A stretch of DNA of 64,000 nucleotides, taken from sequence record PZ168832.1; one strand, 5' to 3'. This stretch comes from a phage. A program made the translations under genes and the position numbers. Positions 3,316-64,000 of this stretch are shown here, piece after piece; within the stretch, counting starts at the first letter, position 1, and every line of letters begins with the position of its first letter. The notes beneath the pieces were generated by a model. The model worked only from the letters and a program-made list of their open reading frames with translations, was not told the DNA's origin and did no database searches.

Positions 3316-4986
3316 ATGTCAATTGAACATGACAATCTTCCAGAGGATACAGGTGATGAATTTGGTGCAATCTTTGACGAAATTCAAGACGCTGGTGTTT
3401 CAGAAGAAATGCAAGCAGCAGAGCAGCAAGGCACCAGAGCTAAAATAAGCCTTCAGCACAAGGCTGTTGAGAAAGATGCAGAGCGCATGGAATGCTACGG
3501 TGAAGAAGACTTGGTTGAAAGGGCACGTTTGCTCGCCTCACTTCAGGTAATCAAGTTCCCTCACTATAAACCGACGAAAGATGATTTTGTTCTTCAGGCG
3601 GACCGGACGAGTGACATGAACCGTTATGCGGTTTTCGACGCGTTGTTTGATAAGGGAAGCGGCGTTGTTCCATTCCCTCACAAAGATACTTTTCGTGGGC
3701 GCTTAGTCGACCATCGCGGCGAAACATTCACCGACCGGACGTTGGAAGTCACAGAGATAGTTGCCGCTGTCGACGCAGCAGGCCTGTCCAACCCAAACTC
3801 ACGGCAGGTCGCTCAATCCTATAAGGAATGGGCCATGCGTTATCAGCGCGACGACCTGATGGACTTCTTCTACAAGAAGCTGCCTGAATGGGACGGTACT
3901 GCGCGCATTGAGAAATACCTTATCGAGCTATTCCGACCGTTCGATACAGAGTTAAACCGACAAATCGGTGTGTATTTTTGGCTATCGCTCTATAACCGCC
4001 TGACCAACCCTGGCTGTCAAGCGCCAATATCCATTGCGCTCATCGGCGGCCAGAACGCAGGGAAGAGTTATTTTAGTAAGCTGCTTTGCGAAGCTATTAT
4101 GAACGACCGCCACGCAACACCGATTCCGTTGAACTTGGCCGCGCAAAACTTCAACCCGTTCTTGCGAGCTATTACGGGTCGCTCAATTATCGCGAACGTT
4201 GGCGAGATGACAGGCTTTAAAAAGGCCGACATCGAAAACATGAAAGCATTCCTGACTAAGACGGAAGATGACCTGGACTTCAAATTTGAAGACACGCAGG
4301 TTAAACCACGCCAGTGGATTGCGATCATGGACGGCAACGAATACGCAGGCATGCAGCGTGACGACACGGGCAACCGTCGTGTTTACCCTATCTTTGTTGG
4401 CCAACTTGCTGACAAGGACGGGCAACCGAACTGGTCTAAAGACTTCCAAGCTGACCTTTCCACTTTGAAAGAAGATGTTTGGCAGCTTATGGCTGAGTGC
4501 GCTGCGTGGATGGAGAAGCACGGCGAAGCAGGTTACAACGCCTTTGTTGGTGAAACGTCTCGTATGCTTACTGAGTTCAGCAAGAATGAAATGGAACGCG
4601 CTCGCGGCGTTATCCGTGATGAGATGGTCGACAACGACCTTGTTGAAGTCGTCATTACTGCGCCTTATGACCGACATCACAGCGGACGCTGGCACATCAC
4701 CAGTGGTGCAATCGCTATGGGATTCAGAGCTAAGTGCGGCAAGTCGCCTTTCTCACGTACCCTTGCGCCGCACATGTCGAAACTTGGATTTGAGCCTGCA
4801 ACCTATCGCAACCAGCGTGGTTACTTTACGCCGCTGATTAAGAATGAAGCAGGGGAATACATTTCTGACTTGATGACTATCTTGGCGTATCTTATCCGCG
4901 ACGAGTCTGACCCTGAAGATATTGAATTCTTGAAGAAGGTTATTGAACGCAAACGTTCTTTAGGAAGAGATAAGGATGAATTCTGA
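3316..4986 (+). CDS. VirE-like P-loop NTPase (primase-associated helicase-like replication protein)
   Basis: 556 aa; Walker A IALIGGQNAGKSYFSKLL; resembles primase C-terminal/VirE-family NTPases; lies downstream of the AEP primase. Confidence 0.55.
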   Translation: MSIEHDNLPEDTGDEFGAIFDEIQDAGVSEEMQAAEQQGTRAKISLQHKAVEKDAERMECYGEEDLVERARLLASLQVIKFPHYKPTKDDFVLQADRTSDMNRYAVFDALFDKGSGVVPFPHKDTFRGRLVDHRGETFTDRTLEVTEIVAAVDAAGLSNPNSRQVAQSYKEWAMRYQRDDLMDFFYKKLPEWDGTARIEKYLIELFRPFDTELNRQIGVYFWLSLYNRLTNPGCQAPISIALIGGQNAGKSYFSKLLCEAIMNDRHATPIPLNLAAQNFNPFLRAITGRSIIANVGEMTGFKKADIENMKAFLTKTEDDLDFKFEDTQVKPRQWIAIMDGNEYAGMQRDDTGNRRVYPIFVGQLADKDGQPNWSKDFQADLSTLKEDVWQLMAECAAWMEKHGEAGYNAFVGETSRMLTEFSKNEMERARGVIRDEMVDNDLVEVVITAPYDRHHSGRWHITSGAIAMGFRAKCGKSPFSRTLAPHMSKLGFEPATYRNQRGYFTPLIKNEAGEYISDLMTILAYLIRDESDPEDIEFLKKVIERKRSLGRDKDEF

Positions 4987-5633
4987 TGAATAAAGCAATC
5001 AACATCGCTAAATTCTTTCAAAATCTCGGTGAACTGAACAAAGAGAGTGACGTTCACGGAGAAGAAATGAACCGGATGATTTCAACCGTGTTGCGTGGTT
5101 TTGGGTACGATAAGGACTCCATCAACTGTAAGCGCACGAAGCTTGTCGATGAGACATACCTTTACTACGTTGAATTGCGCGTAGGGAAAGAGTTGATGAT
5201 CATCGACCCTAAATTGGAAGGGGCGCACTGTTTTGGCGCTCACCCTCGTGCGAGTGAATTCAAGGGTCGCGGTCGCAACCGACTCCAGAAGCTTGATGAT
5301 GCAGGCGACTTGAACATCTCGATGTTCCTCAAAGAGTTCCTTGCGCTGCCGAAGGTTGCATCCTCAACGGGCCGTGATGACCTGTGCAAGATTGGATTCA
5401 GAACTAAAGATTTGCGCAATGCGCTACGCAAGAAGGGATTTGTACCTTCTTATGATAACGTCGCCGCGCTGATGGCTTCCATGGAGGAAGCTGAAGCAAT
5501 GGATAAAGTGCGCGGCTATTTCCTGAATACAGGCTACACAATGTATGAGTGGCACACCAAAGGATTGACTGTCGCCGACTTCATCTATTCATTAGAGCAG
5601 AAGTATGTACGCAATATGCAGGCCACAGGATAA
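4986..5633 (+). CDS. hypothetical protein (215 aa)
   Basis: ORF track; ATGA overlap with upstream gene. Confidence 0.45.
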   Translation: MNKAINIAKFFQNLGELNKESDVHGEEMNRMISTVLRGFGYDKDSINCKRTKLVDETYLYYVELRVGKELMIIDPKLEGAHCFGAHPRASEFKGRGRNRLQKLDDAGDLNISMFLKEFLALPKVASSTGRDDLCKIGFRTKDLRNALRKKGFVPSYDNVAALMASMEEAEAMDKVRGYFLNTGYTMYEWHTKGLTVADFIYSLEQKYVRNMQATG

Positions 5634-16181: not shown

Positions 16182-16391
16182 ATGACTAATATGAATAACT
16201 CTCTTAACGCGCGCGCCCATCGTACCGCCGTCATCGATATGTTCCGCGAACTTAAGGAATTATGCGATAATATGAACGCGATGTTATCCATCGGCGGCTG
16301 GGGATACGAAGAAGAGGTTAAATACGCGGTTATGCGTCGTAAGCGCGATAACGTCCTGGGACAAATTAAACGCGCCGGATTATTCCTTTAA
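16182..16391 (+). CDS. hypothetical small protein (69 aa)
   Basis: ORF track; aggag RBS. Confidence 0.4.
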   Translation: MTNMNNSLNARAHRTAVIDMFRELKELCDNMNAMLSIGGWGYEEEVKYAVMRRKRDNVLGQIKRAGLFL

Positions 16392-16416
16392 TTATAATTA
16401 CCCACCGTTACTAATA

Positions 16417-16440
16417 GGCCGCGCTTAGTCGCGGCTTTTC
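16417..16440 (+). terminator. rho-independent terminator (ggccgcgcttagtcgcggc plus tttt)
   Basis: Read directly after 16182..16391. Confidence 0.45.
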
Positions 16441-16561
16441 TTCGTCCCTATTTCGATGCGCTTCTCCGCGAAAACTCCTTTATCCTTCCCTTCGTCGTCG
16501 CATAATCTTCTTCGAGATGCTCCTTAGTTCGCATAACAGGTATTACGTTAAATGGAGAACA

Positions 16562-16823
16562 TCGCGTAAGTCCTTGTTTTATATAGACACCTATATCGGA
16601 CCGTTAGGGCGGGTCGCGTAAGTCGTTGTTTTATAAAGGCGCAAAACTTTCCCTTCGTTCCGAACTAAAACGAGGAATATGCCGACCCTTCGTCCGAAAA
16701 TAGTACGCATGCGAAATTACATGCATCTAGAATAATCCCCACCGATATTATCCTACACGCAATCATTCGCTTTCGAATCATTATGCTTCATATTGTTATG
16801 CGTCAAATCATTCGCTTTCGAAT
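16562..16823. repeat. direct repeats in an ORF-poor region: tcgcgtaagtc(c/g)ttgttttata x2 and atcattcgctttcgaat x2
   Basis: Copies at about 16562/16614 and 16762/16807; the second contains palindrome attcg-cttt-cgaat. Confidence 0.4.
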
Positions 16824-17095
16824 TGTAACGCTGGAAACTGTAACGGCTATTGATTATTGCGTTCGTGTGGTTTTTATGGCATGGGTCTTTTGGTGCGTTT
16901 TGGTACTTGATGGAATTTGCGGTACACTAATCAAAATACGACACATTTGGTCCACTAACTTTTCAAAGAAAAAGTCCCAGACAGTACCGTACTATTTTGT
17001 ACCCACAGTAAATTTGCAGTACACTCCTGCGCGGCAGGCAAAATAAAGGGCCGCCACAGCGACCCACGATTCACGGTTAAATCAACAAGCACCCA

Positions 17096-17542
17096 CTATT
17101 CACTCTTATGGGCATCACCAAAGCCATCCGCAATCTGGCTGATCAGCGATTCAATGGACACAGTTTTACCAATTGATCGAGCGGTAATAGCAAGCATATT
17201 ATCAATCAAACCATGATTGGATGCATATGATCCAGGTTTTGAATCATCTTCAGAACAACCAAAAAGCTGGTCGCGCAGACTTTCAAGAGAACGCTCAATA
17301 TTTTCCAACTTCTCTTCTAAATCGGATTGGCGACGTAAAACCCACGTCAAGTCACGGTTGCCAACTTCCAATCCATCAGAATAGCAAGGTGGAGCGTCAA
17401 TTTTGATGCTGGAACCAAAAGCAATGCCGCTGCCTTTAGTATATGTGTGACTCATAGAATCATTTTTATTTGACATATCGTTACCTTCAATATTTGGGTG
17501 ATTAACAATAAGTATAATAAAGCCGCATAGCGCGGCATTCAA
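17096..17542 (-). CDS. hypothetical protein (start possibly at internal MSNKND)
   Basis: ORF track. Confidence 0.4.
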   Translation of the reverse strand: MNAALCGFIILIVNHPNIEGNDMSNKNDSMSHTYTKGSGIAFGSSIKIDAPPCYSDGLEVGNRDLTWVLRRQSDLEEKLENIERSLESLRDQLFGCSEDDSKPGSYASNHGLIDNMLAITARSIGKTVSIESLISQIADGFGDAHKSE

Positions 17543-51287: not shown

Positions 51288-52250
51288 TTAAAAATACTCC
51301 ATATCGGTAATATCACGGAAGCATTTATACAAAGCAGAGCGCGGCACATCAACGATGCCAAAGTTAAAGAATTTATACGTTAGATATTTATCGCGATAGT
51401 TCTCGCGATTCTCCCAAAGCATTTTTCTCTCTGCCATAGGCATTGAACCAGCGGATACGCGGAAAGGAATCATTTCACCTTTTTCATCCACATATTTTGG
51501 ATTGACGACTACGAATGAGCCAAGGTGTCCTTTCGCAACTAAACCTTCAGCCTCTTTTGAACGCTTGGTGCGACCCAATTCGTCAATGAATGCTTCGTTG
51601 TTGTTCTCCATCATCTCAACGAAGTCTATGATCAATCCTTCTTCATCCGTCCACGGCTTGTCCTTCCACACATCACGTGACTTCGGCGTCGCGCGGCCAT
51701 GCTTGTATTTGCCCGTCCAAGACTTGCCATACAAGCCTTCATATCCAAGCTGGTCTGCTTCGATTTGCATCGCCGCGTACTGTTCCATATTTTCGATGTT
51801 TCGATATTCGAGAGCGCGAAGGAATGGGCGTCGACCATGGTTGATGAGATGTTGATTAACTTCAGCAACTCTGGCTCGATAGTTTGCATAACGCTTTTCA
51901 AAAGGCAGATCAGGGTCGCTGAAGTCATCAAACACCCACCATGTAAAGTTAGTTATTGCGTCAGTATTCATGCATGCAGTATAGGCCTGTTGCATTACGT
52001 TCTTATCATTTGGATTGCCGTCGATTAGCTCTCCATCAAGTCCGTGAATTAGTTCACCCAAAAAGAGGAACTCTTTTTTGATTTGAACGTTGCGCAACGG
52101 CATGCCGGAAGTGCCCATTGGCAAGTTGTCATACGCCATTGCACGTATGCCATCGACCTTGAATGACAGTCCGCAAGGCAGCGGCACGTCTTCGCCGCGC
52201 TCGATAATCTGCTTACGTTGGCAACCCTTCATTGGTTTTAATGCTGTCAT
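51288..52250 (-). CDS. ATP-dependent DNA ligase
   Basis: 320 aa; motif I FKVDGIRA (KxDG), motif III-like LDGELIDG. Confidence 0.7.
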   Translation of the reverse strand: MTALKPMKGCQRKQIIERGEDVPLPCGLSFKVDGIRAMAYDNLPMGTSGMPLRNVQIKKEFLFLGELIHGLDGELIDGNPNDKNVMQQAYTACMNTDAITNFTWWVFDDFSDPDLPFEKRYANYRARVAEVNQHLINHGRRPFLRALEYRNIENMEQYAAMQIEADQLGYEGLYGKSWTGKYKHGRATPKSRDVWKDKPWTDEEGLIIDFVEMMENNNEAFIDELGRTKRSKEAEGLVAKGHLGSFVVVNPKYVDEKGEMIPFRVSAGSMPMAERKMLWENRENYRDKYLTYKFFNFGIVDVPRSALYKCFRDITDMEYF

Positions 52251-52252
52251 AA

Positions 52253-52876
52253 TTATTGTCCTGTAACTTCTCTGATCACACGGTCTTCAAGTTCCAGCTT
52301 CTTTACCATTTTGCAGGAGTGCTCATAAGCTGGATCAGTCGATTTGATAAACGTGCCGTTGTACATGACACCTTTGCGGTCCTTGATGTCTTCGTAGGCC
52401 GCTTGCGCACAGTCGGATAATCGAAGGCCATAATCATGAGCTACGCCGGAAAGGTAATCGACTGCGGCCATGATAGTGACGTCAATATCCATGGCCTGAT
52501 TCTTGGCAATAGCATCACCAAGTCGTCCAAGGGTCTTTGCCAGGCGAAGGATAAATGAATGAGGGTGAGCGCCCTTATCAGCGCAACCGCCGCCATTAAT
52601 GTTTTCGATTTCAGTACCGTTTTGCGCTGCCAGGATGGCCAACACAACAAGGCAATCGCCGATGTCGTCCTTAATTGCCGCCTGCAAGTCACAGATGGCC
52701 TGCTCTGTATATCCAATTTCAGGGTCAAAGAACACAAGGTCATGGAGTTGATCAACGTGGTCGGTTAACTCCCCAAACTCGCTGATAAGCTTCGGATATT
52801 GGTCTTTAAGGTCGCAACCTTGGATGATGTTACGGTCAGAAGCCCACTGGCGAATGTTTGCATAAATCTGGTTCAT
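52253..52876 (-). CDS. possible MazG-like nucleotide pyrophosphohydrolase
   Basis: 207 aa; KLISEFGELTDHV resembles the EExGE-type helix; weak call. Confidence 0.3.
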   Translation of the reverse strand: MNQIYANIRQWASDRNIIQGCDLKDQYPKLISEFGELTDHVDQLHDLVFFDPEIGYTEQAICDLQAAIKDDIGDCLVVLAILAAQNGTEIENINGGGCADKGAHPHSFILRLAKTLGRLGDAIAKNQAMDIDVTIMAAVDYLSGVAHDYGLRLSDCAQAAYEDIKDRKGVMYNGTFIKSTDPAYEHSCKMVKKLELEDRVIREVTGQ

Positions 52877-56784: not shown

Positions 56785-57203
56785 GACAATTCCTCTAAAT
56801 ACTTGATGATGTGATGAATAGTTCCCTTCACGATTATCTCACGTTGAACGTCTGCAGTATTATAACGCTTTAATTCAATAGAAGGGTGGACTAAATAAAA
56901 CATCTTCTCAGAATCAACCTTAAGCAAAACGAATGATGGGTATCGCCAATCATTCCACGAAGAAAGGAAGCTGCACTGTCCTTTCTCAAATGCATTTCTG
57001 AAAGGTGCAGTGGTTGCCCTTGCAGGCCACGATTCAAAGAACTTCATTTCAAGCCAAAAGCCGCGCCCTTTCCGGTTGGTGCCGATTACGTCCGGCACGC
57101 CATCACCAGTCATTGACTCGATTCGTTGAAGCTTCAATACCGATTCTGAATGCTTCTTCAAAGGCACGAATATGTATTTCTGCTCACGGTTATTTGTTGC
57201 CAT
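56781..57203 (-). CDS. VRR-NUC-type PD-(D/E)xK nuclease
   Basis: 140 aa; GVPDVIG ... WLEMKF pattern; directly downstream of and overlapping the SNF2 helicase gene. Confidence 0.5.
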   Translation of the reverse strand: MATNNREQKYIFVPLKKHSESVLKLQRIESMTGDGVPDVIGTNRKGRGFWLEMKFFESWPARATTAPFRNAFEKGQCSFLSSWNDWRYPSFVLLKVDSEKMFYLVHPSIELKRYNTADVQREIIVKGTIHHIIKYLEELS

Positions 57204-60087
57204 CTGGATACACCTGTTTGATCACGTCAACGATGAACATGTCAATGCCTTCAAGCTTACGACCTTTCATCAGGAAGAATGCGCCGTTCCCGACGTTTTC
57301 AGCAATGTACTTCCCGTACTTCTGGAACTTCTCTGGACGAATCCTGAAGCGCATTGGCGAGTCGGTCGAGTCGTCTTTGCACATAAGGTCGATGAACTGA
57401 GTCTCAAGCTTGTTCCCGTACTGGTCAAACTCTGCGTAGCGGCCATCAGCTTGAAGACCCTTTTTAAGCTTTCCGTACTTTGTATAAATGCCGCGCTCAA
57501 GACGTTTGCGGATGCGTGTTGCTTCGTTCTCGTCTGCAAGCACTTTCTTTGTCAACTTGCCGATTACTATTGCGCGCTCGTCATCACCGACTTCCTTCAT
57601 CTGGCGTATTGAAGCGCCGGACGTCACGCCAATAAGATAAGGGTCATTATACGCCCAGCCAAACTTTGTGTGCATCTCTGTAAGGTCGCCGTATTTGACT
57701 TCAGCATTGGCCAATGCATCCTTTTGCTTTTGCGTTAAGGTTCCGGCTTCACGTGCTTCGATATACTTCATCGCCTTCACCATTCCGTACCCTTTCGCGT
57801 TCATGATGCCGCCGATTAGCTTTCCGTTCGCGATGGTCCAGTTCATTGAAGAGTGATCAGGGTCGATTGGCACATAATCCACGCCTTCCTTCGCAAGTTC
57901 ACGTAATATCGCAATCGTCTGGTCTTCATCCTTGGCAGCGCGTAAGCAGGCAGCGGCAAATTCCAACGGGTAGTGTCGCTTAAGCCACAAGGTCCAGTAG
58001 GTCACGACCGCGTATGACACGGAGTGTGATTTGTTAAAGCCCCATGACCCGAACGTAGCCATCGCTTGCCAAAGCTTTCTTGCATCCGCTTCCGGTACGC
58101 CGTTATTGATTGCGCCTGCAACAAAGTCCTCGCCAAGCTTGTTAAAGTATTCTTCACCCTTACGGCCTGACATCGCCTTACGGACAGCGGACGTTTTCGC
58201 CCAGTCAAATGAACCAATCTCTTTAACCACGGCCATGATTTGCTCTTGGTAAAGAAACACGCCGTAAGTCTCTTTTAAGTACGGCTCAAGCTGCGGCACG
58301 TCGTATTCAATCGGCGCACGCCCTGCCGCGCGTTCAATGTATTTCTGGGCCATACCGGATGACAACGGGCCAGGTCGACCCAAAGCCGTCAGGTTGTCGA
58401 TTTTGTTAAAGTTATCGACGTGCACAAAGTTTGTTACTGAGCGTACAGCGTCGCCTTCAAACTGGAAGATGCCTGACATCTTGTTTTCGTTAAGAATGTC
58501 AAGGACGCTTTGATCATCAAGCTTGATGCCGTAGAGCGTTTCAGCATCAATAACGCCTGTATCAGAAATAATGCCGAGAGTACGAAGGCCCAGCGCATCA
58601 AGCTTCAAAAGGTTAAGGTATTCGCTGTCAGGCTTATCGATTTGTGCAATCCCTTCTGCAGTTACAGTACAGTAATCAGAGATTGGGTCATTACACACAA
58701 TGATTCCCGCTGCGTGAACACCTGTGTGGGACGGGTGAATCTCAAGGTCACCCATGCAACGCGCGGCGTCAGGATATTTCGCCACGAACTCTTGGCCCGT
58801 GGTCGTTGTTGCAAAGGTATCCTCCAGGCCGTGACCATAACGGGCGTCACCGGATGAGTATTCAAGCAGTGCGTTTTTAATGTTGGCCGTTTCGTGGTAT
58901 CCAATGTTGAACTTCTTACCAACCTGCGCCATTACTGAGTTGGCCTTAAGCGTGTTGATGTTGCCAAGCTTTGCAACGTTCATTTCGCCGTATTTCTCTT
59001 TAAGGTAATCAAACACCATGTAGCGTTTGGTATCTTCAAAGTCGATGTCGATGTCAGGAAGGTCGGCGCGGCTTACGTCGATGAATCGGGCAAACAGCAG
59101 CTTATACGGGATTGGGTCCACTTCCGTGATGCCGAGGCAATAGCAAACAAGTGAACCAGCCGATGAGCCGCGAGCAGGACCGACGAGCATTTTTGTTTTT
59201 GCGAATCGTACAAGGTCCGCTACTACCAGAAAGTATGAGTCGAAATCTTTCAGCTGAATCTGGTGAATTTCTTCGTTGAAGCGGTCCTCATATTCCTGAG
59301 TCCATTCTTTGATGTGACCTGCTTTGAGACGGTACTCCATCCCCTCACGCGCAAGCTTTACCATATCACCAGCAAGGTGAATAATCGGTGCCTTGCGTAA
59401 TTTCAGGTCAAGTCCGACTATGCCGTTTGCTATGTCAACAGCATTGGCCGTTGCCTGATTCAGCTCATCTTCCGTCAAGATGCCTTTAAGCTGTTTGCGC
59501 AAGTCTTCCGCGTCAACGATGCAGTGCGGCTTGACCGTGTCGCGCACTTCCCAAGCATAAGCAAAGTCAACGTGCTCAGGTGAAGGCATGTGGTTGTATC
59601 CGGTTAAAACCAGCGGCCTTCCACCGCTACGATGAGCCAATGCCTGGCGCTTTGCCAAAAGGAACGATGATGGGTTGACGTCTATATAGTCGTAGTCCTC
59701 TGGCCGCAGCAACTCCACGGCACCGCCACAGAATTTAACGACGCCATCGAGCGCACCGAACTCTGCACGGGTAAGCCCACCGCGCTGCGTTGAAAGTGTT
59801 GTCGCGTTGTAAAAAGATTTTAAGTCAAGGGCCAATATCCAAGCCTTCGGTTTGAATCCCTTTTTAGGGTCCGCATCAGGGTCGATGATTGGAATCTCCA
59901 TCCCAAACATAGGCTTAATATCATTTTTCTGGCATTCCTTTTCCCAGCGAACGTGACCCCATGTGTTGTTATCAACTAATGCCGCGACTTCGCAGCCCAA
60001 CTCTTTGAGCCGTGCTATAATTTCAGGATGCCGTCCATAAACTTCTTTGAACGTGTAACCGCTGCAAACTCTCAATTGTGGAAACAT
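57190..60087 (-). CDS. DNA polymerase III alpha subunit-like (DnaE-type) replicative polymerase
   Basis: 965 aa; N-terminal PHP-like region; GPARGSSAGSLVCYCLGITEVDPI...DIDIDFE matches the DnaE palm motif. Confidence 0.85.
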   Translation of the reverse strand: MFPQLRVCSGYTFKEVYGRHPEIIARLKELGCEVAALVDNNTWGHVRWEKECQKNDIKPMFGMEIPIIDPDADPKKGFKPKAWILALDLKSFYNATTLSTQRGGLTRAEFGALDGVVKFCGGAVELLRPEDYDYIDVNPSSFLLAKRQALAHRSGGRPLVLTGYNHMPSPEHVDFAYAWEVRDTVKPHCIVDAEDLRKQLKGILTEDELNQATANAVDIANGIVGLDLKLRKAPIIHLAGDMVKLAREGMEYRLKAGHIKEWTQEYEDRFNEEIHQIQLKDFDSYFLVVADLVRFAKTKMLVGPARGSSAGSLVCYCLGITEVDPIPYKLLFARFIDVSRADLPDIDIDFEDTKRYMVFDYLKEKYGEMNVAKLGNINTLKANSVMAQVGKKFNIGYHETANIKNALLEYSSGDARYGHGLEDTFATTTTGQEFVAKYPDAARCMGDLEIHPSHTGVHAAGIIVCNDPISDYCTVTAEGIAQIDKPDSEYLNLLKLDALGLRTLGIISDTGVIDAETLYGIKLDDQSVLDILNENKMSGIFQFEGDAVRSVTNFVHVDNFNKIDNLTALGRPGPLSSGMAQKYIERAAGRAPIEYDVPQLEPYLKETYGVFLYQEQIMAVVKEIGSFDWAKTSAVRKAMSGRKGEEYFNKLGEDFVAGAINNGVPEADARKLWQAMATFGSWGFNKSHSVSYAVVTYWTLWLKRHYPLEFAAACLRAAKDEDQTIAILRELAKEGVDYVPIDPDHSSMNWTIANGKLIGGIMNAKGYGMVKAMKYIEAREAGTLTQKQKDALANAEVKYGDLTEMHTKFGWAYNDPYLIGVTSGASIRQMKEVGDDERAIVIGKLTKKVLADENEATRIRKRLERGIYTKYGKLKKGLQADGRYAEFDQYGNKLETQFIDLMCKDDSTDSPMRFRIRPEKFQKYGKYIAENVGNGAFFLMKGRKLEGIDMFIVDVIKQVYPDGNK

Positions 60088-60629
60088 TATTTACTCCAGA
60101 TGTCATATATGCCAATTTGTTGGCAGACTTTGTGCAGTAATATTACGTCGTCTAATGCACGGTGTTTCTGTTCATATTTTCCGAAATATAATTCATACAG
60201 CTCTTGAAGCTTAACTCTTCGGCCAAAAATAGGCAAGGTTTGCTCAACTGTACAAATGTTTATTTCTGGAAAATTAACATCATCAAGCGTAAGTCCTTCG
60301 CGCTGTAGTGCATAATCAAGAATGTTTTTATCGAACGCATGGTTGTGCGCGATAGTGGCATCCGTCTTCTTGAAGATTTCTTTTAGCTGCGGGACAAAAT
60401 TGATGAATGGTGGATTGCACTCAAGGTCTTCATTTGTTAATCCGGTAATCTTTGTGATAATTTCTTCAATCACGATTTCAGGATTAATTATGAATTCAAA
60501 CGTTTCAAGAATCTCTTTGCCGTCTGTCAACAGACCTGCAAATTCAATAGGGCGCGGCTGCATCCCAAGCGGCGCTTTCGGGTGCACGGTCAATCCGGTT
60601 GTTTCGAAGTCATAAGGGAGAAATAACAC
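60087..60629 (-). CDS. DnaQ-like 3'-5' proofreading exonuclease
   Basis: 180 aa; Exo I YDFETTGL, Exo II HNHAFDKNIL, Exo III HRALDDV. Confidence 0.85.
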   Translation of the reverse strand: MLFLPYDFETTGLTVHPKAPLGMQPRPIEFAGLLTDGKEILETFEFIINPEIVIEEIITKITGLTNEDLECNPPFINFVPQLKEIFKKTDATIAHNHAFDKNILDYALQREGLTLDDVNFPEINICTVEQTLPIFGRRVKLQELYELYFGKYEQKHRALDDVILLHKVCQQIGIYDIWSK

Positions 60630-60683
60630 ATTAGCCTCCTACAAAAAGGCCGCCCATTAGGACGGCCACAGATTCACGATTTG

Positions 60684-61235
60684 TTATACAGTGTACGGAG
60701 TACCGTCTTGATTCAACCGCACGATGAATTTAAGGTCGACACCGATGATTTCACGAGTATCAAAGATTACATAGTTGTAACGACGCTGACCAGCAATGTT
60801 TGGGTTGGTGTGAGAGTCGGTCACAACTTCCTGCGCAACCTGAATGCCTTCTTCTTTAAAGAACTTGCGCCATTCAGCAAGTTCAGCGGCAGTCACGTGC
60901 ATACCAAGATGGCTAACCTGATTGTCGTGCGCATCGATGTATTCGATGTTTTCGTGAATCCAGTTGCAACCTTTTGTATAGTCAAGAATTTCAAGCTCAA
61001 GAGGCTTACCAGCGCCGCCATCGGTGCCGTTGCCAGCCTGATAGTTGAAGCGCAAGTCAGCTTCGTTGGTGCAATCGCCGCGCTGACCCTTAAAGACATC
61101 AGCTTCAAATACGCGACCAGTAGCAACAACGTGATCATGGAACCATTCTGTCAGGCCGATTTTAGCCAGGAAATTCTGTGCGCGCTGAGCACCTGGAATT
61201 GACAGGGCGATTTGTTCAATTTTAAAATGTGGCAT
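60684..61235 (-). CDS. hypothetical protein (183 aa)
   Basis: ORF track; no confident family assignment; hairpin plus T-run on minus sense lies between it and dnaQ-like gene. Confidence 0.4.
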   Translation of the reverse strand: MPHFKIEQIALSIPGAQRAQNFLAKIGLTEWFHDHVVATGRVFEADVFKGQRGDCTNEADLRFNYQAGNGTDGGAGKPLELEILDYTKGCNWIHENIEYIDAHDNQVSHLGMHVTAAELAEWRKFFKEEGIQVAQEVVTDSHTNPNIAGQRRYNYVIFDTREIIGVDLKFIVRLNQDGTPYTV

Positions 61236-61331
61236 TTTGTTTCCTTAATTAAATATTATTGATTAATTACTTTGTTGTCTTCGTCCTGTTTCTTTTCAGG
61301 AGCGGGTGTGACAACCTCAAATTTTCGTGAT

Positions 61332-62015
61332 TTATTTACCGAATGGAATATCAGTACCAGACATAAAGCGCCATGCGCCCGTAATTAAGATATGGCGAAT
61401 GAAGTCAGCAATTACTTGCGGCTCAGTCTCCAATCCATTCATCAGTGCCTTTTTCTGGTATTCAGCAGCGTATTCAGGAGTCCAGCCGCGAGTCGCGCAA
61501 ACAGCATCTTCAATCTGTTTGGACATGCCAGTACCACGTAGCTTGTTAGGACTAATAGAGAATACCGTGATCCCGTATTTAGGCGTAAGCTCGTGAGCCA
61601 TCTGCTTGCTAATCATGAGCGCAGCAGCCTTGGAAGCATTATAACACAAGCTGGACGTCATAGGAATATGCGCAGCGTTGGAAACGATGTTGATCACAAA
61701 ACCTTTGTTGTCAATAAGACTTTTCAGCGCGGCCTGAGTCGTGTTGACGAAAGAGAAGGCGTTGGTGTGCATAACGCGATTGAACTCTTCGTAGTTAACA
61801 TCTTCGAACCAGTTGTTGGAGTTGACGCCAGCGCAGTTGATCAAGCCTTCTACGTCGTATTGAGAGAGAAGCTCTTTCATCTGTTTCGCGTTACGGATGT
61901 CATAGCCGTTCTCCAAATCAATACCGACAACTTCATGACCGTAAGCGCCAAGGGTGTCAAAAATGGATTTACCAAGACCGGAATTGCAGCCAGTTACAAC
62001 AATTACTTTTTTCAT
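61332..62015 (-). CDS. short-chain dehydrogenase/reductase (SDR) family oxidoreductase
   Basis: 227 aa; VTGCNSGLG Rossmann motif and YNASKAA catalytic Y-x-x-x-K. Confidence 0.75.
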   Translation of the reverse strand: MKKVIVVTGCNSGLGKSIFDTLGAYGHEVVGIDLENGYDIRNAKQMKELLSQYDVEGLINCAGVNSNNWFEDVNYEEFNRVMHTNAFSFVNTTQAALKSLIDNKGFVINIVSNAAHIPMTSSLCYNASKAAALMISKQMAHELTPKYGITVFSISPNKLRGTGMSKQIEDAVCATRGWTPEYAAEYQKKALMNGLETEPQVIADFIRHILITGAWRFMSGTDIPFGK

Positions 62016-62038
62016 TTATTTATCCTTTTTGGACTTCG

Positions 62039-62072
62039 TTTCGATGAGATAAATATAACTCATCGAAACGCA
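62039..62072. promoter_or_regulatory. perfect 12-bp inverted repeat (cgtttcgatgag ... ctcatcgaaacg) with 10-bp AT-rich spacer
   Basis: Read directly in the intergenic gap between the HAD and SDR genes. Confidence 0.3.
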
Positions 62073-62080
62073 CAAGTAAA

Positions 62081-62953
62081 CTATTTATTGAAATTAATAT
62101 TATGGGTGTTAACAAGACGTTCACACATGGCGCTGTAAACACCATCATCGTGTATAGAGTCTTCGTGCTTCAGGCCGCTGATTGCGAAGCGTGTAAGCTT
62201 GACAATCTTAAGCTCGAACAGATGCCACATGTGGTAGTCTTCCGGCGTTTTCAACGTCACGCCATTAGGGAAAAGCACTTGCATAACCTGACCTACCATC
62301 ACAGCGTTATCGCCATAGACAGCGTTGCGCTCACGGAAGGTTGCTGCCATTGCATCAAGAATATCAGCGGCAGTTGCCGGAGATTGTCCAACTTCCACAG
62401 CCTTAGTCTCTTCTTGCCCTGTTGCGCTTGGATCAATTGCTAATTGTTGCACCACTTCACCTGCCTTGCAAAGATTAAATGTAAAAGCGATTTTATTTTG
62501 AGCAACGGAATTATAATACAATGCTTCATCTTGCATCCGCGCGAGTACGTCTTGTCGGTCGTCGAATACATTGATGATTCGATAATCGCCGTGCCGCAAA
62601 GCGTGCGATAGCCATGCAGATTTCATAATAGTTGATGGACGTTTGTCGCCATAGTCTCTCATCTTGATTGTAAATTCATCAAAAGGAAAAACATTGTCCA
62701 GACGTTCAAAAGTCACTTGTCTGTATTTTTCTGGCCTTGCAGTCCAATATTCAACCGCCTCACCGCGAAGAGATGCCGACTCTACTGCTGATGCAATGTG
62801 AGGATAGAACTGATCATAACCAATACCGCTGTGATAATCATCATAGTCTGACAACGGACCTGCCACCTTAATGCGGTCTAAGCGCCAACGATCATCAAAC
62901 AGCGTTCCGTCAAGGTCGAATACGTTTAAGATTTCGCTGTTTTTAATGCTCAT
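62081..62953 (-). CDS. HAD-superfamily phosphatase (possible nucleotidase) with extra C-terminal domain
   Basis: 290 aa; motif I VFDLDGTL. Confidence 0.55.
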   Translation of the reverse strand: MSIKNSEILNVFDLDGTLFDDRWRLDRIKVAGPLSDYDDYHSGIGYDQFYPHIASAVESASLRGEAVEYWTARPEKYRQVTFERLDNVFPFDEFTIKMRDYGDKRPSTIMKSAWLSHALRHGDYRIINVFDDRQDVLARMQDEALYYNSVAQNKIAFTFNLCKAGEVVQQLAIDPSATGQEETKAVEVGQSPATAADILDAMAATFRERNAVYGDNAVMVGQVMQVLFPNGVTLKTPEDYHMWHLFELKIVKLTRFAISGLKHEDSIHDDGVYSAMCERLVNTHNINFNK

Positions 62954-63753
62954 CCTTTTGATACTCCATCTTTAGCAACTGGATTGTTGGTGATTGGCAT
63001 CGCATTCCAAAACTGGATGCGCAACTCTTCTTGCTGTGCCGTAGTATCCATCCAATCACGATACCAAGGGCAATGGGCTTTTCCATGACGAGGAAACGCG
63101 CATTTACCCATACCGATGCATTGCGGCTGTAATAATGGATTTGCCCACGGGTGCACCTTGAGGACTTCCGCAACCATTGCGCGGAATACTTCTTGATACT
63201 CGCCTTGAGTGCGCGTGCACAAGCGGTTTGACGCCATCTGCTGCAGCGTGCGCAAGTTGAACTTTGCCATGATATGCGTTTGCATATTAGAAGGCAACAC
63301 GGCACGTGCATCTTGAATCTCTGCGCCAGCCGCGCGAAGCTCTTGGTAGAGGGCGTCAATCGTGGCCATCGCATCATCCCATTTCTCTGCCAGTTCAGCG
63401 GCCTTCTCGTCATGACGAGTCCATCCCTTTGGATCATCCTCTGGGTAAGTGAATTTAGCAGGACGAATCGCATCAAATGCAGACGACTCCTGAGCGCGGC
63501 TGGTGCGTTCTTGATATGCACCTGTGCGTGTGCGTACCATCTGATGAGTCATATTCTTTGATACAGCGGTGATGTCAAAGATATAGTCCACAAAGTCAAA
63601 AGGCGACTTGATGGTGTCAAGCATATAGCGCCAATGCTCTTGCTTCTCTGATTCCGTCATCTCAGAGACAGGCTTACCAGTCATGCGCGTGTTCTTTGTT
63701 TCCAGCAAAAGGTCAAGTGCATCTTGGGTGTATCGAATTAATTCAACTTTCAT
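62950..63753 (-). CDS. ThyX-like flavin-dependent thymidylate synthase homologue (divergent)
   Basis: 267 aa; HQMVRTRTGAYQERTSRA resembles the ThyX signature region but with RTR where I recall RHR. Confidence 0.45.
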   Translation of the reverse strand: MKVELIRYTQDALDLLLETKNTRMTGKPVSEMTESEKQEHWRYMLDTIKSPFDFVDYIFDITAVSKNMTHQMVRTRTGAYQERTSRAQESSAFDAIRPAKFTYPEDDPKGWTRHDEKAAELAEKWDDAMATIDALYQELRAAGAEIQDARAVLPSNMQTHIMAKFNLRTLQQMASNRLCTRTQGEYQEVFRAMVAEVLKVHPWANPLLQPQCIGMGKCAFPRHGKAHCPWYRDWMDTTAQQEELRIQFWNAMPITNNPVAKDGVSKG

Positions 63754-63766
63754 TTTAATTATCCTA

Positions 63767-64000
63767 TTAACGGTAATTTACTAGTTGCTGATCACTAGAG
63801 AAGGTGCAATGATAAACGAATTGTGCGTTATAAAGCAACTGAAAACTTTTCTTTGGTTCATTATTAGAACTCATTGATGTAAAGATTTCTGCACCAGAAC
63901 GGTTTTCACCAATCAGGTTAATAAAGCCGCCAGTTGAACGAGGCTGAACGAAAGTGAAACGTTGCATCCACGGAGTGCGGTTGGCACCTTTCCCTGTGAA
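63767..64000 (-). CDS. hypothetical protein, partial (continues beyond window end)
   Basis: Open reading frame on minus strand runs off the window end (...FTGKGANRTPWMQRFTF...). Confidence 0.3.
   Translation of the reverse strand, partial: FTGKGANRTPWMQRFTFVQPRSTGGFINLIGENRSGAEIFTSMSSNNEPKKSFQLLYNAQFVYHCTFSSDQQLVNYR

Follow-up and report, generated by a model that had tools for sequence, protein, structure and literature searches.

Described thymidine modification systems

Thymidine hypermodification derived from 5-hmdU is reportedly found in phages M6, ViI, SP10 and phiW-14 (reportedly by Lee et al., 2018), whose toolkit is said to comprise a ThyA-type dUMP hydroxymethylase, a 5-hmU DNA kinase, aGPT-pyrophosphorylase-type transferases and PLP/radical-SAM enzymes. 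The adducts of these M6-type systems are amino-alkyl, whereas those of the relatives of the phage analysed here are sugar-like. Pbunavirus contains the closest relatives of Wifcevirus (PMC11990801). LC-MS of virion DNA from the Pbunavirus phages F8 and 14-1 revealed new nucleosides derived from thymidine (362 and 390 Da), with about a quarter of the thymidines, at TG sites, swapped for sugar-type adducts and most T left canonical (PMC12191111, a 2025 preprint). TG-containing restriction sites in the modified DNA remain uncut, and the authors found none of the known hypermodification genes; the adduct data come from this one preprint, and the structures are provisional (PMC12191111).

The DNA analysed here, termed the window, is a stretch of 64,000 nucleotides (PZ168832.1) from a coliphage that belongs to Wifcevirus and is 97.6% identical to phage WFH. 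It has in common with F8 and 14-1 a flavoprotein-ThyX-(HAD-DUF6378)-DnaQ-DnaE array and a TG footprint in the genome sequence. SDR and VOC genes are missing from Pbunavirus, and the modification was detected chemically there, whereas a matching footprint is read from the genome sequence here. The likeness to the M6-type systems lies in a thymidylate-synthase homologue that would give a C5 one-carbon handle, in partial thymidine replacement and in protection from restriction; unlike them, the window cassette combines a ThyX-type enzyme with HAD, DUF6378, SDR, VOC and flavoprotein components. The ThyA-type hydroxymethylase, 5-hmU DNA kinase and aGPT-Pplase were not found by Pfam searches of the cassette and flanking proteins or in the record annotation.

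Gene content and transcriptional layout

The four cassette genes of the window are all encoded on the minus strand, directly followed by DnaQ and DnaE. The features of the locus are as follows:

63767-64000, minus strand, gene for 148 aa of which only the 3' part lies in the window, homologue of Bas101_0050
62950-63753, minus strand, ThyX-clade gene, 267 aa
62081-62953, minus strand, HAD-DUF6378 fusion gene, 290 aa
61332-62015, minus strand, SDR gene, 227 aa
60684-61235, minus strand, VOC-fold gene, 183 aa
60648-60667, minus strand, intrinsic-terminator-like hairpin between the VOC gene and dnaQ, GGCCGTCC-TAAT-GGGCGGCC and then TTTTT
60087-60629, minus strand, DnaQ-like exonuclease (Pfam RNase_T)
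57190-60087, minus strand, DnaE polymerase (Pfam DNA_pol3_alpha, finger and PHP)

The initial annotation had described four genes beside the replicase, encoding a ThyX-like protein, a HAD phosphatase extended by a C-terminal domain, a true SDR and an unassigned 183-aa protein. Both the coordinates and the naming were confirmed, and since each ORF has hundreds to thousands of homologues, all four are real genes. Their proposed placement in a replication operon holds insofar as DnaQ-DnaE follow directly, but the strong hairpin separates the transcription units, so that the four genes end an upstream unit and lie outside the operon of the polymerase itself. Serratia phage MTx has an annotated terminator in the corresponding position. 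The first gene of the cassette lies just beyond the 148-aa gene and encodes a flavoprotein-like product of ~330 aa with a GxGxxG motif (Bas101_0051 family, alignment A6); this alignment matched an actinophage 'oxidoreductase' with an hhalign probability of 94.3%.

Conservation and synteny of the cassette

The window genes make up the 3' half of an array of fixed order, flavoprotein-ThyX-HAD-DUF6378-SDR-VOC-DnaQ-DnaE, which was found in essentially all of 80 viral contigs with enough flanking sequence. Presence per locus was 75/76 for SDR, 70/70 for DUF6378, 65/65 for HAD, 56/56 for ThyX and 44/44 for the flavoprotein, with DnaQ (73/73 loci) and DnaE (62/70) as the invariant downstream neighbours. 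An SDR in this position had been thought unusual for a phage; it is rather the rule in this phage group. Identity to marine relatives was 45% for the SDR and 52% for the VOC protein, compared with 37% for DnaE. All six families are also present in the actinophage Sparcetus of Microbacterium, in permuted order and with a different HAD subfamily, and contig L017 carries five of them together with a short helical protein, the tie of which to DUF6378 is unsupported.

TG footprint and restriction

In the window, 98 of the 100 GATC sites occur in a TGATC/TG context, which leaves 2 that have neither T on the 5' side nor A on the 3' side, where 47 would be expected (p=1e-24); no effect was seen for other flanking bases. 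GATC sites without the protective flank numbered 3/113 in Bas101, 1/51 in MTx and 1/21 in Gekk3-15. Unflanked EcoRI sites were 4/18 in the window (8.5 expected, p=0.028) and 1/15 in Bas101, and unflanked EcoRV sites were 1/5 (p=0.23) and 0/7, respectively. None of the 16 palindromic hexamers of the window that contain TG/CA was depleted, versus 24 of the 48 that do not (Fisher p=1.8e-4). The experimentally modified F8 served as positive control and gave the signal (GATC, 3.5e-8; GTAC, 9e-9; SalI, 0/9; AatII, 0/7), and the GATC flank test was negative in the control phages T7 and lambda. The footprint is unreliable beyond enteric and Pseudomonas phages, and a GGCC signal was also seen in the controls L5 and lambda. 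The fraction of T followed by G is 27.4% in F8 and 26.4% in the window.

Wifcevirus resists EcoKI, EcoRI and EcoRV and is highly sensitive to EcoP1_I (PMC11990801), a phenotype that fits masking at TG. TG is present in the EcoKI site and absent from AGACC, for which the protective flank is not enriched (20/78).

The modified relatives and the TG footprint of the window together make the cassette the prime candidate for the TG modification pathway. With moderate confidence, its most likely function is to make or tailor a sugar-type hypermodified thymidine at TG, which would hide restriction sites with TG inside or next to them. We infer the cassette genes to be the cause of the footprint, as we do each individual step given below; the ~60 further genes without known function in the phage genome count against singling the cassette out. 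A modified nucleotide and plain dTMP supply had initially been rated as equally likely. The Pbunavirus adducts and the TG footprint shift this balance towards modification, with dTMP supply as the main rival, and the restriction to TG implies that some step takes place on the DNA itself, beyond a modified deoxynucleotide pool.

ThyX-clade protein

To our knowledge, free dUMP is the substrate of all ThyX enzymes characterised so far. The window protein matched Pfam Thy1 (PF02511) at 106 bits against a gathering cut-off of 24.8, over profile positions 2-191 of 191, and scored below the TIGR02170 equivalog cut-off (81.8 versus 87.9 bits). By sequence it is a ThyX-clade homologue of flavin-dependent thymidylate synthase that may catalyse dUMP to dTMP conversion. 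The fold, the Thy1 domain and the dUMP/FAD arginines are common to it and the ThyX proteins of T. maritima (TM0449), M. tuberculosis and H. pylori. The arginines for binding dUMP and the phosphates of FAD are kept as R74, R76, R86, R150, R168 and R177, and the T. maritima residues R78, R80, R90, R147, R165 and R174 are all aligned and invariant in clade alignment A4.

Unlike TM0449-type enzymes, the window protein has R74-T75-R76 (63526-63534) in place of the usual RHR, Ile for His53 (presumably the folate-stacking residue), Thr for Ser88 and Ala for the lid Tyr91. Its signature region, R74-T75-R76 ... T84-S85-R86-A87, departs from RHRxxxxxxxS(x)RY. The profile and active-site comparison that had been proposed as a check thus confirmed the Thy1 family, and the signature residues stayed abnormal on alignment to T. 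maritima ThyX. Of 47 ThyX sequences from cassettes, 44 have RTR, 3 RNR and none RHR; the lid position was T, A or V and never Y, and the RHR His, His53 and lid Tyr were absent across the clade. The RTR reading was therefore correct, but it is a trait of the clade and not peculiar to this phage. Nor does it correlate with SDR and VOC: Pbunavirus has an RTR ThyX but neither of these genes, and in Aeromonas phage Gekk3-15 both accompany an RHR ThyX. Roles of the RHR motif and the lid Tyr in ThyX are described in PMC6514825. The window protein also carries a C-terminal extension with C213-x5-C219-x9-C229, and this three-cysteine extension is found in PB1-like lineages.

A divergent but normal ThyX could simply feed DnaE, any TG modification being the work of other genes. 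HAD-DUF6378 would then condition the nucleotide pool, for example by dUMP supply or by taking 3'-phosphates off breakdown products, and SDR and VOC would be accessory small-molecule enzymes. The strong Thy1 match and the full set of retained arginines favour such a role, as do the free variation of the middle RxR residue across phage ThyX (T, N, Q or H), the ThyX-DUF6378 gene pair of an unrelated Faecalibacterium phage and the HAD-DUF6378 fusion of Rhizobium phage TM39, located near ThyX, dUTPase and ribonucleotide reductase. Most T of the relatives is canonical, so the phage must have a source of ordinary dTMP, which may be all that ThyX provides. Ordinary supply nevertheless seems the less likely reading: it offers no role for SDR, VOC and flavoprotein, though their conservation exceeds that of the polymerase, it fails to explain the clade-wide loss of the lid Tyr and His53, and it leaves the modification of the relatives with no candidate genes.

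HAD-DUF6378 fusion protein

The fusion protein consists of two domains:

62429-62953, minus strand, HAD domain (the N-terminal ~175 of the 290 residues), T4-Pnkp-type 3'-phosphatase
62084-62386, minus strand, DUF6378-like domain (residues ~190-290), four-helix bundle of ~100 aa

The N-terminus, F-D13-L-D15-G-T-L, matched Pfam HAD_PNKP at 33.5 bits (cut-off 27.6). The HAD motifs are D13-x-D15, T71, K111 and D131-D132-R133, of which D13, D15, T71, K111 and D131-D132 are invariant across 30 homologues. The domain has the Pnkp phosphatase fold, with T4 Pnkp and the Pnkp1 of an RNA-repair complex as the closest structures. No P-loop 5'-kinase domain was found in the fusion protein by Pfam, and the remaining 100 residues form the four-helix bundle; the database name 'polynucleotide kinase/phosphorylase' is unjustified for a protein that has no kinase domain. 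Whereas T4 Pnkp and bacterial Pnkp1 include a kinase, the HAD domain of the window is instead fused or adjacent to the DUF6378-like helical domain.

The helices of the C-terminal domain span residues 195-213, 216-227, 237-258 and 264-280 in the AF2 model. The window domain itself did not match PF19905 (DUF6378), and 13 of 18 homologues did so below threshold (best E=4.2e-6). Its invariant residues are R, Y, N, K-L-x-R and H-x-D-S-x-x-D, and no other part of the cassette is as conserved (61.5% identity to a marine homologue). Among 2101 representative DUF6378-like homologues the only fusion partner was HAD_PNKP; the two are fused in 24 loci and separate genes in 45. A PDB sequence search with the domain returned no match. 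Assignment as a MazG-like all-alpha NTP pyrophosphohydrolase was rejected (hhalign at most 1% against the MazG-like protein of the window and the MazG-like domain of L017).

The structural kinship with T4 Pnkp and the Pnkp1 of the RNA-repair complex would also suit end healing, in which the phosphatase clears 3'-phosphates from damaged DNA or RNA (e.g. after attack by host nucleases) for ligase or DnaE and its neighbours are unrelated. The phage does have an ATP-dependent ligase (51288-52250 in the window), and a weak T4-endoV-like gene lies inside marine versions of the cassette. We consider this improbable, as the 5'-kinase domain is missing and the constant company of SDR, VOC, DUF6378 and ThyX is not accounted for. 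Furthermore, actinophages have an NT5C-type deoxyribonucleotidase-like enzyme in place of the cassette HAD, a swap that points to small-molecule substrates.

SDR and VOC-fold proteins

The 227-aa protein matched Pfam adh_short at 110 bits and contains T8-G-x3-G-x-G15, N60-C-A-G63, S112 and Y125-x3-K129, motifs by which it is classed as a classical SDR. Asp33 at the end of beta-2 suggests a preference for NAD(H). All NCBIfam matches were far under their equivalog cut-offs, so that no specific assignment can be given; the nearest families include polyol and sugar dehydrogenases. The database annotation as FabG 3-oxoacyl-ACP reductase was rejected (75 bits against cut-offs of 222-296), the best PDB match being FabG at only 52 bits.

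The 183-aa protein had no match in Pfam, PHROG or NCBIfam. Its AF2 model (pLDDT 92.7) shows paired beta-alpha-beta-beta-beta modules in a single chain, and Foldseek returned methylmalonyl-CoA epimerase 3gm5 as best match (E=3.9e-7), then HPPD, with probability 1.0 to MMCE and HPPD. The homologue P0039 scored 26.8 bits for Glyoxalase_4 (cut-off 27). On the modelled structure, this previously unassigned protein is placed in the VOC (glyoxalase/dioxygenase) fold, which it has in common with MMCE, glyoxalase I and HPPD, although sequence identity to these is only 9-16%. Residues Q8, E82 and H109 are invariant, and K169 appears to take the place of the usual fourth metal ligand (Glu) in a manual, by-eye alignment. 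The family, with 690 homologues, is essentially phage-specific; a survey of 185,579 prokaryotic genomes yielded just 3 loci, at least 2 of them with the phage cassette.

Two further explanations involve these proteins. The first treats them as unrelated morons or auxiliary metabolic genes, a FabG-like reductase for host lipids and a glyoxalase/antibiotic-resistance protein linked by descent only. It agrees with the database wording ('FabG-like 3-oxoacyl-ACP reductase; moron, auxiliary metabolic gene'), and synteny inside the PB1-like group could reflect descent alone. It is very improbable, however, given that all FabG equivalog cut-offs are widely missed (75 versus 222 bits), that SDR and VOC are more conserved than DnaE, that the genes are still clustered after rearrangement in unrelated phages and that cellular genomes contain hardly any members of the VOC family. 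The second proposes cofactor support for a ThyX with an altered folate site, by a FolM/PTR1/dihydropteridine-reductase-like SDR, HAD plus DUF6378 dephosphorylating a pterin or flavin precursor, and a VOC epimerase, which jointly would provide that ThyX with a reduced pterin or flavin. Pteridine reductases are SDRs, His53 of ThyX is replaced, and the enzyme types formally parallel the route from dihydroneopterin triphosphate to tetrahydromonapterin. There is little probability in it nonetheless: NCBIfam and PDB searches gave the SDR no specific similarity to FolM, PTR1 or DHPR, we know of no VOC enzyme that takes part in the metabolism of pterins, the same ThyX variant occurs in Pbunavirus, where SDR and VOC are missing, and the TG footprint is left unaccounted for.

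Proposed TG modification pathway

In the favoured TG-site hypermodification, the ThyX-clade enzyme would perform C5 one-carbon chemistry in an active site that has neither the lid Tyr over dUMP C5 and flavin N5 nor the folate-stacking His, yielding 5-hydroxymethyl-dUMP, an activated methylene or merely dTMP as acceptor base. The HAD phosphatase would strip phosphate from a sugar-phosphate or nucleotide intermediate. This intermediate may already be joined to DNA, given that the enzymes nearest to the phosphatase in structure work on the 3' ends of polynucleotides. Oxidation, reduction or isomerisation of a C4/C5 sugar or sugar alcohol would fall to the NAD-type SDR and the VOC protein, and the DUF6378 domain may act as partner of the other enzymes. 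As judged from sequence families, among which polyol and sugar dehydrogenases are nearest to the SDR, the enzyme types would suit tailoring of a sugar or polyol phosphate. Pbunavirus makes its adducts without SDR and VOC, so these two would be tailoring steps at most. Reading of TG would need an enzyme that recognises DNA sequence, and no DNA-binding or base-flipping domain was recognisable in the four proteins; likewise, no nucleotide kinase, 5-hmU DNA kinase or glycosyltransferase was recognisable near the cluster.

A more specific version, which we advance only tentatively, is a new ThyX-type route in which the opened active site passes a C5 methylene or hydroxymethyl to a sugar-derived acceptor made by the cassette partners. 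The acceptor would be made and trimmed by the flavoprotein, the Pnkp-like phosphatase, DUF6378, SDR and VOC. If this is true, C4/C5-sugar thymidines would occur at every TG in PB1-like therapeutic phages, in Wifcevirus and in many environmental phages with the cassette. Conserved in hundreds of phages, the cassette is the best available candidate for making a sugar-bearing modified thymine that would shield the phage DNA from bacterial restriction enzymes. The adduct of Wifcevirus may be a different one, because those of F8 and 14-1 already differ from each other. Between these two phages, the replication module diverges most at the HAD-DUF6378 gene and the small genes next to it, with 80% and ~78% identity versus 96-98%.

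Location and identity of the four genes

The window derives from a Wifcevirus genome, and its segment 60000-64000 is 97.6% identical to Escherichia phage vB_EcoM_WFH. The four open reading frames of the initial annotation were recovered at its coordinates, each on the minus strand:

62950-63753, minus strand: Thy1-domain protein (ThyX); Pfam 106 bits, TIGR02170 81.8 bits, slightly below the 87.9 equivalog cut-off
62081-62953, minus strand: HAD phosphatase with an extra C-terminal domain of ~100 residues; FDLDGTL intact, HAD_PNKP 33.5 bits
61332-62015, minus strand: classical SDR; TGxxxGxG, Ser112-Tyr125-Lys129
60684-61235, minus strand: 183-aa VOC-fold protein; family searches without match

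The motifs and scores listed also bear out the earlier assignments of a HAD phosphatase with an added C-terminal domain and of a bona fide SDR. All of these proteins add new members to superfamilies already known. The SDR scores well below the FabG cut-offs and fits no specific family; the Asp at the end of its beta-2 strand suggests a preference for NAD(H). Public records describe the product of 62081-62953 as 'polynucleotide kinase/phosphorylase' or '3'-phosphatase, 5'-polynucleotide kinase', but a kinase domain is absent. The dnaQ and dnaE genes come after the 183-aa gene, which is separated from dnaQ by a strong terminator-like hairpin (60648-60667). Comparison of all cassette proteins with the PADLOC defence models gave zero matches.

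Conservation of the gene cassette

Identical gene order was found in phages of Serratia (Myosmarvirus), Xanthomonas (Carpasinavirus), and Aeromonas. For a wider census, the best 80 of 205 IMG/VR loci encoding the VOC protein were annotated with family HMMs, and denominators were restricted to loci with flank long enough for the given gene. The array flavoprotein-ThyX-HAD-DUF6378-SDR-VOC-DnaQ-DnaE was present on a single strand at all census loci with enough flank, and the individual genes were counted as SDR 75/76, DUF6378 70/70, HAD 65/65, ThyX 56/56, flavoprotein 44/44, DnaQ 73/73, and DnaE 62/70. HAD and DUF6378 were fused at 24 loci and separate at 45; in marine phage contigs, the two domains are likewise two genes.

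The first gene of the array lies just past the window end, next to the partial gene at 63767-64000, and encodes a GxGxxG protein of ~330 aa (Bas101_0051, at 16280-17275 of the Bas101 record L001). This family, designated A6, has at least 2746 homologues, with GxGxxG at the N-terminus and GRFATWR..LLDD at the C-terminus, the latter reminiscent of UDP-galactopyranose mutase and amine-oxidase flavoproteins. No Pfam domain was found in it, and no PDB relative except through the Rossmann motif.

Rearranged versions were also found in unrelated phages. In Microbacterium phage Sparcetus, an 'oxidoreductase' (gp55, homologous to A6 at hhalign 94.3%), an NT5C-type HAD (gp56), an SDR (gp57), a VOC protein (gp58), and gp59, which is 49% identical to the C-terminal domain of the window's HAD protein, lie beside DnaE, with ThyX farther downstream. 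On a 49-kb contig (L017), the order is flavoprotein, MazG-NT5C-HAD fusion, SDR, short helical protein, VOC, ThyX, and DnaE, and an unrelated Faecalibacterium phage is reported to carry a ThyX-DUF6378 gene pair. Between the window phage and a marine relative, identity is 61.5% for the DUF6378 domain, 51.7% for VOC, and 44.8% for SDR, compared with 37.4% for DnaE. Because the clustering outlives rearrangement, a different HAD subfamily can substitute for the phosphatase, HAD and DUF6378 occur both fused and split, and DUF6378, VOC, and SDR are conserved above DnaE, these comparisons argue for the cassette being a functional unit and not a mere product of shared descent. On marine contigs L011-L014, ThyX and HAD are separated by a gene (~4922-5407) whose product weakly matches Pyr_excise (T4 endonuclease V-like).

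The ThyX signature

The initial annotation had read RTR in place of the expected RHR, and active-site comparison by alignment with Thermotoga maritima ThyX confirmed this reading. The arginines binding dUMP and the FAD phosphates are kept in the window protein; His53 is replaced by Ile, RHR by RTR, Ser88 by Thr, and the Tyr after S-x-R by Ala. Hydrogen bonding to the FAD phosphates and ribityl is ascribed to the RHR residues, and a role as lid above dUMP C5 and flavin N5 to the tyrosine (PMC6514825). Among 47 distinct cassette ThyX proteins, 44 have RTR, three RNR, and none RHR, and the lid position is occupied by Thr, Ala, or Val, never Tyr. The altered signature is thus a trait of the whole clade and is not specific to the window phage. 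Elsewhere the motif varies freely, being RHR in Aeromonas phage Gekk3-15, RNR in a Rhizobium phage, RQR in Sparcetus, and RTR with a canonical SSRY on contig L017. The Pbunavirus ThyX has the identical RTR...TSRA variant, yet these phages are without SDR and VOC, so RTR does not signal anything linked to the SDR.

The window ThyX has a C-terminal extension (residues ~204-267; 62950-63150) in which three cysteines are invariant (C-x5-C-AFPRxG...C) and might bind a metal or an Fe-S cluster. The extension occurs only in lineages with fused HAD-DUF6378 (the PB1-like group) and is missing from the marine versions.

The VOC protein and the DUF6378-like domain

The 183-aa protein, left unassigned by the initial annotation, is predicted to adopt a VOC/glyoxalase-type fold (pLDDT 92.7), and the solved structures nearest to the model are methylmalonyl-CoA epimerases and HPPD. 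Nearly all of its 690 homologues are on contigs of phage size. Only three loci were found in 185,579 prokaryotic genomes, two of them with the phage cassette and the third a 479-bp contig. Similarity of gp74 of Gordonia phage Ranch to the VOC protein proved absent.

The C-terminal domain of the HAD protein is a four-helix bundle probably related to Pfam DUF6378, with matches below threshold. This very conserved family has at least 2101 representatives at 50% clustering, and its members stand alone or are fused to HAD_PNKP domains only. Identification of the domain as a MazG-like NTP pyrophosphatase was rejected, profile-profile comparisons being negative and PDB sequence searches empty; fold searches with the whole HAD-DUF6378 model returned HAD matches only. 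A 125-aa protein of contig L017 and Ranch gp72 were considered as DUF6378 homologues and were unsupported (hhalign probability 12%).

DNA chemistry of Pbunavirus

Wifcevirus was placed beside Pbunavirus in the BASEL-completion paper, whose authors described its resistance to most restriction systems without an explanation (PMC11990801). DNA hypermodification in Pbunavirus was first shown in 2025, in one preprint: DNA of phage F8 is cleaved by EcoRI, HindIII, XbaI, DraI, and BsaI and left uncut by five enzymes with TG in their sites (PMC12191111). In the same study, LC-MS revealed new thymidine-derived nucleosides of 362 Da in F8 ('erythrose/threose sugar alcohol derivative') and 390 Da in phage 14-1 ('circularized aldopentose derivative'), which take the place of about one quarter of T, and known hypermodification genes were found to be lacking in the family (PMC12191111). 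By mass arithmetic, 362 corresponds to thymidine plus a tetrose, equivalently 5-hmdU plus a tetritol minus water, and 390 to 5-hmdU plus a pentose minus water. T before G accounts for 26.4% of all T in the window and 27.4% in F8, in agreement with the 'one quarter' of the preprint (PMC12191111).

Identity between F8 and 14-1, whose reported adducts differ, is 96-98% for DnaE, DnaQ, and ligase and 78-82% for HAD-DUF6378, orf58, orf60, and orf61. Within the replication module, the two phages diverge most in HAD-DUF6378 and the small genes beside it.

TG-dependent avoidance of restriction sites

Modification of T in TG would protect any restriction site containing or adjoining TG, so that such sites need not be purged, and the window conforms to this expectation. 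Sixteen of the 64 palindromic hexamers are wholly absent from the window, among them the sites of BamHI, KpnI, SacI, NheI, XhoI, SmaI, SacII, and EagI, compared with 28 of 4032 non-palindromic hexamers (0.7%). HindIII (51 sites), SalI (30), and SspI (45) are over-represented. Of TG-containing sites, the window has 15 for ApaLI (GTGCAC), 25 for PstI (CTGCAG), 13 for NdeI (CATATG), 23 for FspI (TGCGCA), and 38 for BclI (TGATCA), and of the TG-free DraI site (TTTAAA) it has 29. No absent or strongly depleted palindrome in the window contains TG/CA: depletion affects 0/16 palindromes with TG/CA versus 24/48 others (Fisher p=1.8e-4; p=0.012 under first-order Markov expectation). In unmodified T7, TG-containing palindromes are depleted too (7/16). 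Palindrome avoidance as an argument against DNA modification was overturned, the avoidance being conditional on the absence of TG.

A TG flank was defined as T directly 5' and/or A directly 3' of a site. Of 100 GATC sites in the window, 98 have a TG flank; the two exceptions (16119, CGATCC; 22401, AGATCT) compare with 47 expected (p=1e-24), and TGATCA occurs 38 times versus 7 expected. Other symmetric flanks around GATC had no effect in the window. Flankless GATC is similarly scarce in the full Bas101 genome (3/113), Serratia phage MTx (1/51), and Aeromonas phage Gekk3-15 (1/21). EcoRI sites without a TG flank number 4/18 in the window (p=0.028) and 1/15 in Bas101, and EcoRV sites 1/5 and 0/7, respectively. 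The positive control F8, modified by experiment, shows the flank effect at GATC, GTAC, SalI, and AatII, and at GATC it is absent from lambda and T7.

For marine phages and actinophages, GGCC was rejected as evidence: its flanking by 5'-T or 3'-A is enriched in the controls L5 (p=9e-10) and lambda (p=0.001) as well, so TGGCCA enrichment is a general bias unusable as a footprint, and the marine and most actinophage results were discounted. Only GATC, GTAC, SalI, AatII, EcoRI, and EcoRV were relied on. The EcoKI site contains TG, and the EcoP1I site (AGACC) has neither TG nor enrichment of a protective flank; the TG pattern fits the BASEL restriction phenotypes.

In the actinophage Ranch of Gordonia, part of the cassette is present in altered order (flavoprotein, NT5C-HAD, methyltransferase, SDR, DnaE, and ThyX; VOC absent), and TG flanks are enriched, with 138 flankless GATC versus 212 expected (p=9e-15; only p=0.03 in the L5 control), SacI 0/9, and NarI-type GGCGCC 0/7.

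Candidate pathway and alternatives

Judging from this footprint, the DNA of the window phage very probably bears a protective modification directed to TG and resembling that of its relatives. The cassette to which the four genes belong appears the best available candidate for making it because it is the sole block of non-replicative enzymes common to all these phages, because its enzyme types suit the making and trimming of a C4/C5 sugar or alditol, and because HAD-DUF6378 and its small neighbours diverge most between F8 and 14-1. The candidate set would comprise a homologue of thymidylate synthase whose active site is opened, together with a flavoprotein, a phosphatase, a dehydrogenase, and a VOC enzyme of isomerase or lyase type. 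Counting against this reading, Pbunavirus DNA is modified despite the lack of SDR and VOC. No enzyme reading TG at the DNA level is evident among the four cassette proteins, and ThyX may merely supply dTMP. The initial annotation had held a modified-nucleotide pathway and ordinary dTMP supply to be equally possible. We now consider the chances of the cassette being a modification pathway to be evenly balanced, and its explanation by ordinary nucleotide supply to be the less likely of the two. Anti-viperin nucleotide detoxification, methylglyoxal detoxification, an acyl-CoA epimerase/reductase pair, and oxidative nucleoside cleavage were also considered.

The searchable literature contained no account of the cassette or its function, nor of Wifcevirus DNA chemistry or restriction digests; taken as a unit, the cassette would be new within a known class of systems, as would a route from ThyX to thymidine hypermodification of the sugar type. 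Against Pseudomonas aeruginosa, few phages are used in therapy as widely as those of Pbunavirus, and a short, testable gene list is now available for two questions, the Pbunavirus modification genes and Wifcevirus restriction resistance. TG-context rescue of avoided restriction sites provides a sequence-only diagnostic, which predicts same-context modification in Wifcevirus, Myosmarvirus (Serratia), and Aeromonas Gekk3-15 genomes. Should the cassette prove responsible, DNA hypermodification based on ThyX would be described for the first time; the finding would give functions to four large families of uncharacterised phage proteins (DUF6378-like, A6 flavoprotein, phage VOC, and phage SDR) and would be relevant to phage engineering, sequencing, and host-range prediction.

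The window also encodes, apart from the cassette, a 207-aa MazG-like protein (52253-52876, minus strand; weak Pfam MazG match), flanked by spanin genes and an ATP-dependent DNA ligase gene (51288-52250). This protein, with 92% identity between the F8 and 14-1 versions, could be part of the cassette's nucleotide pathway.
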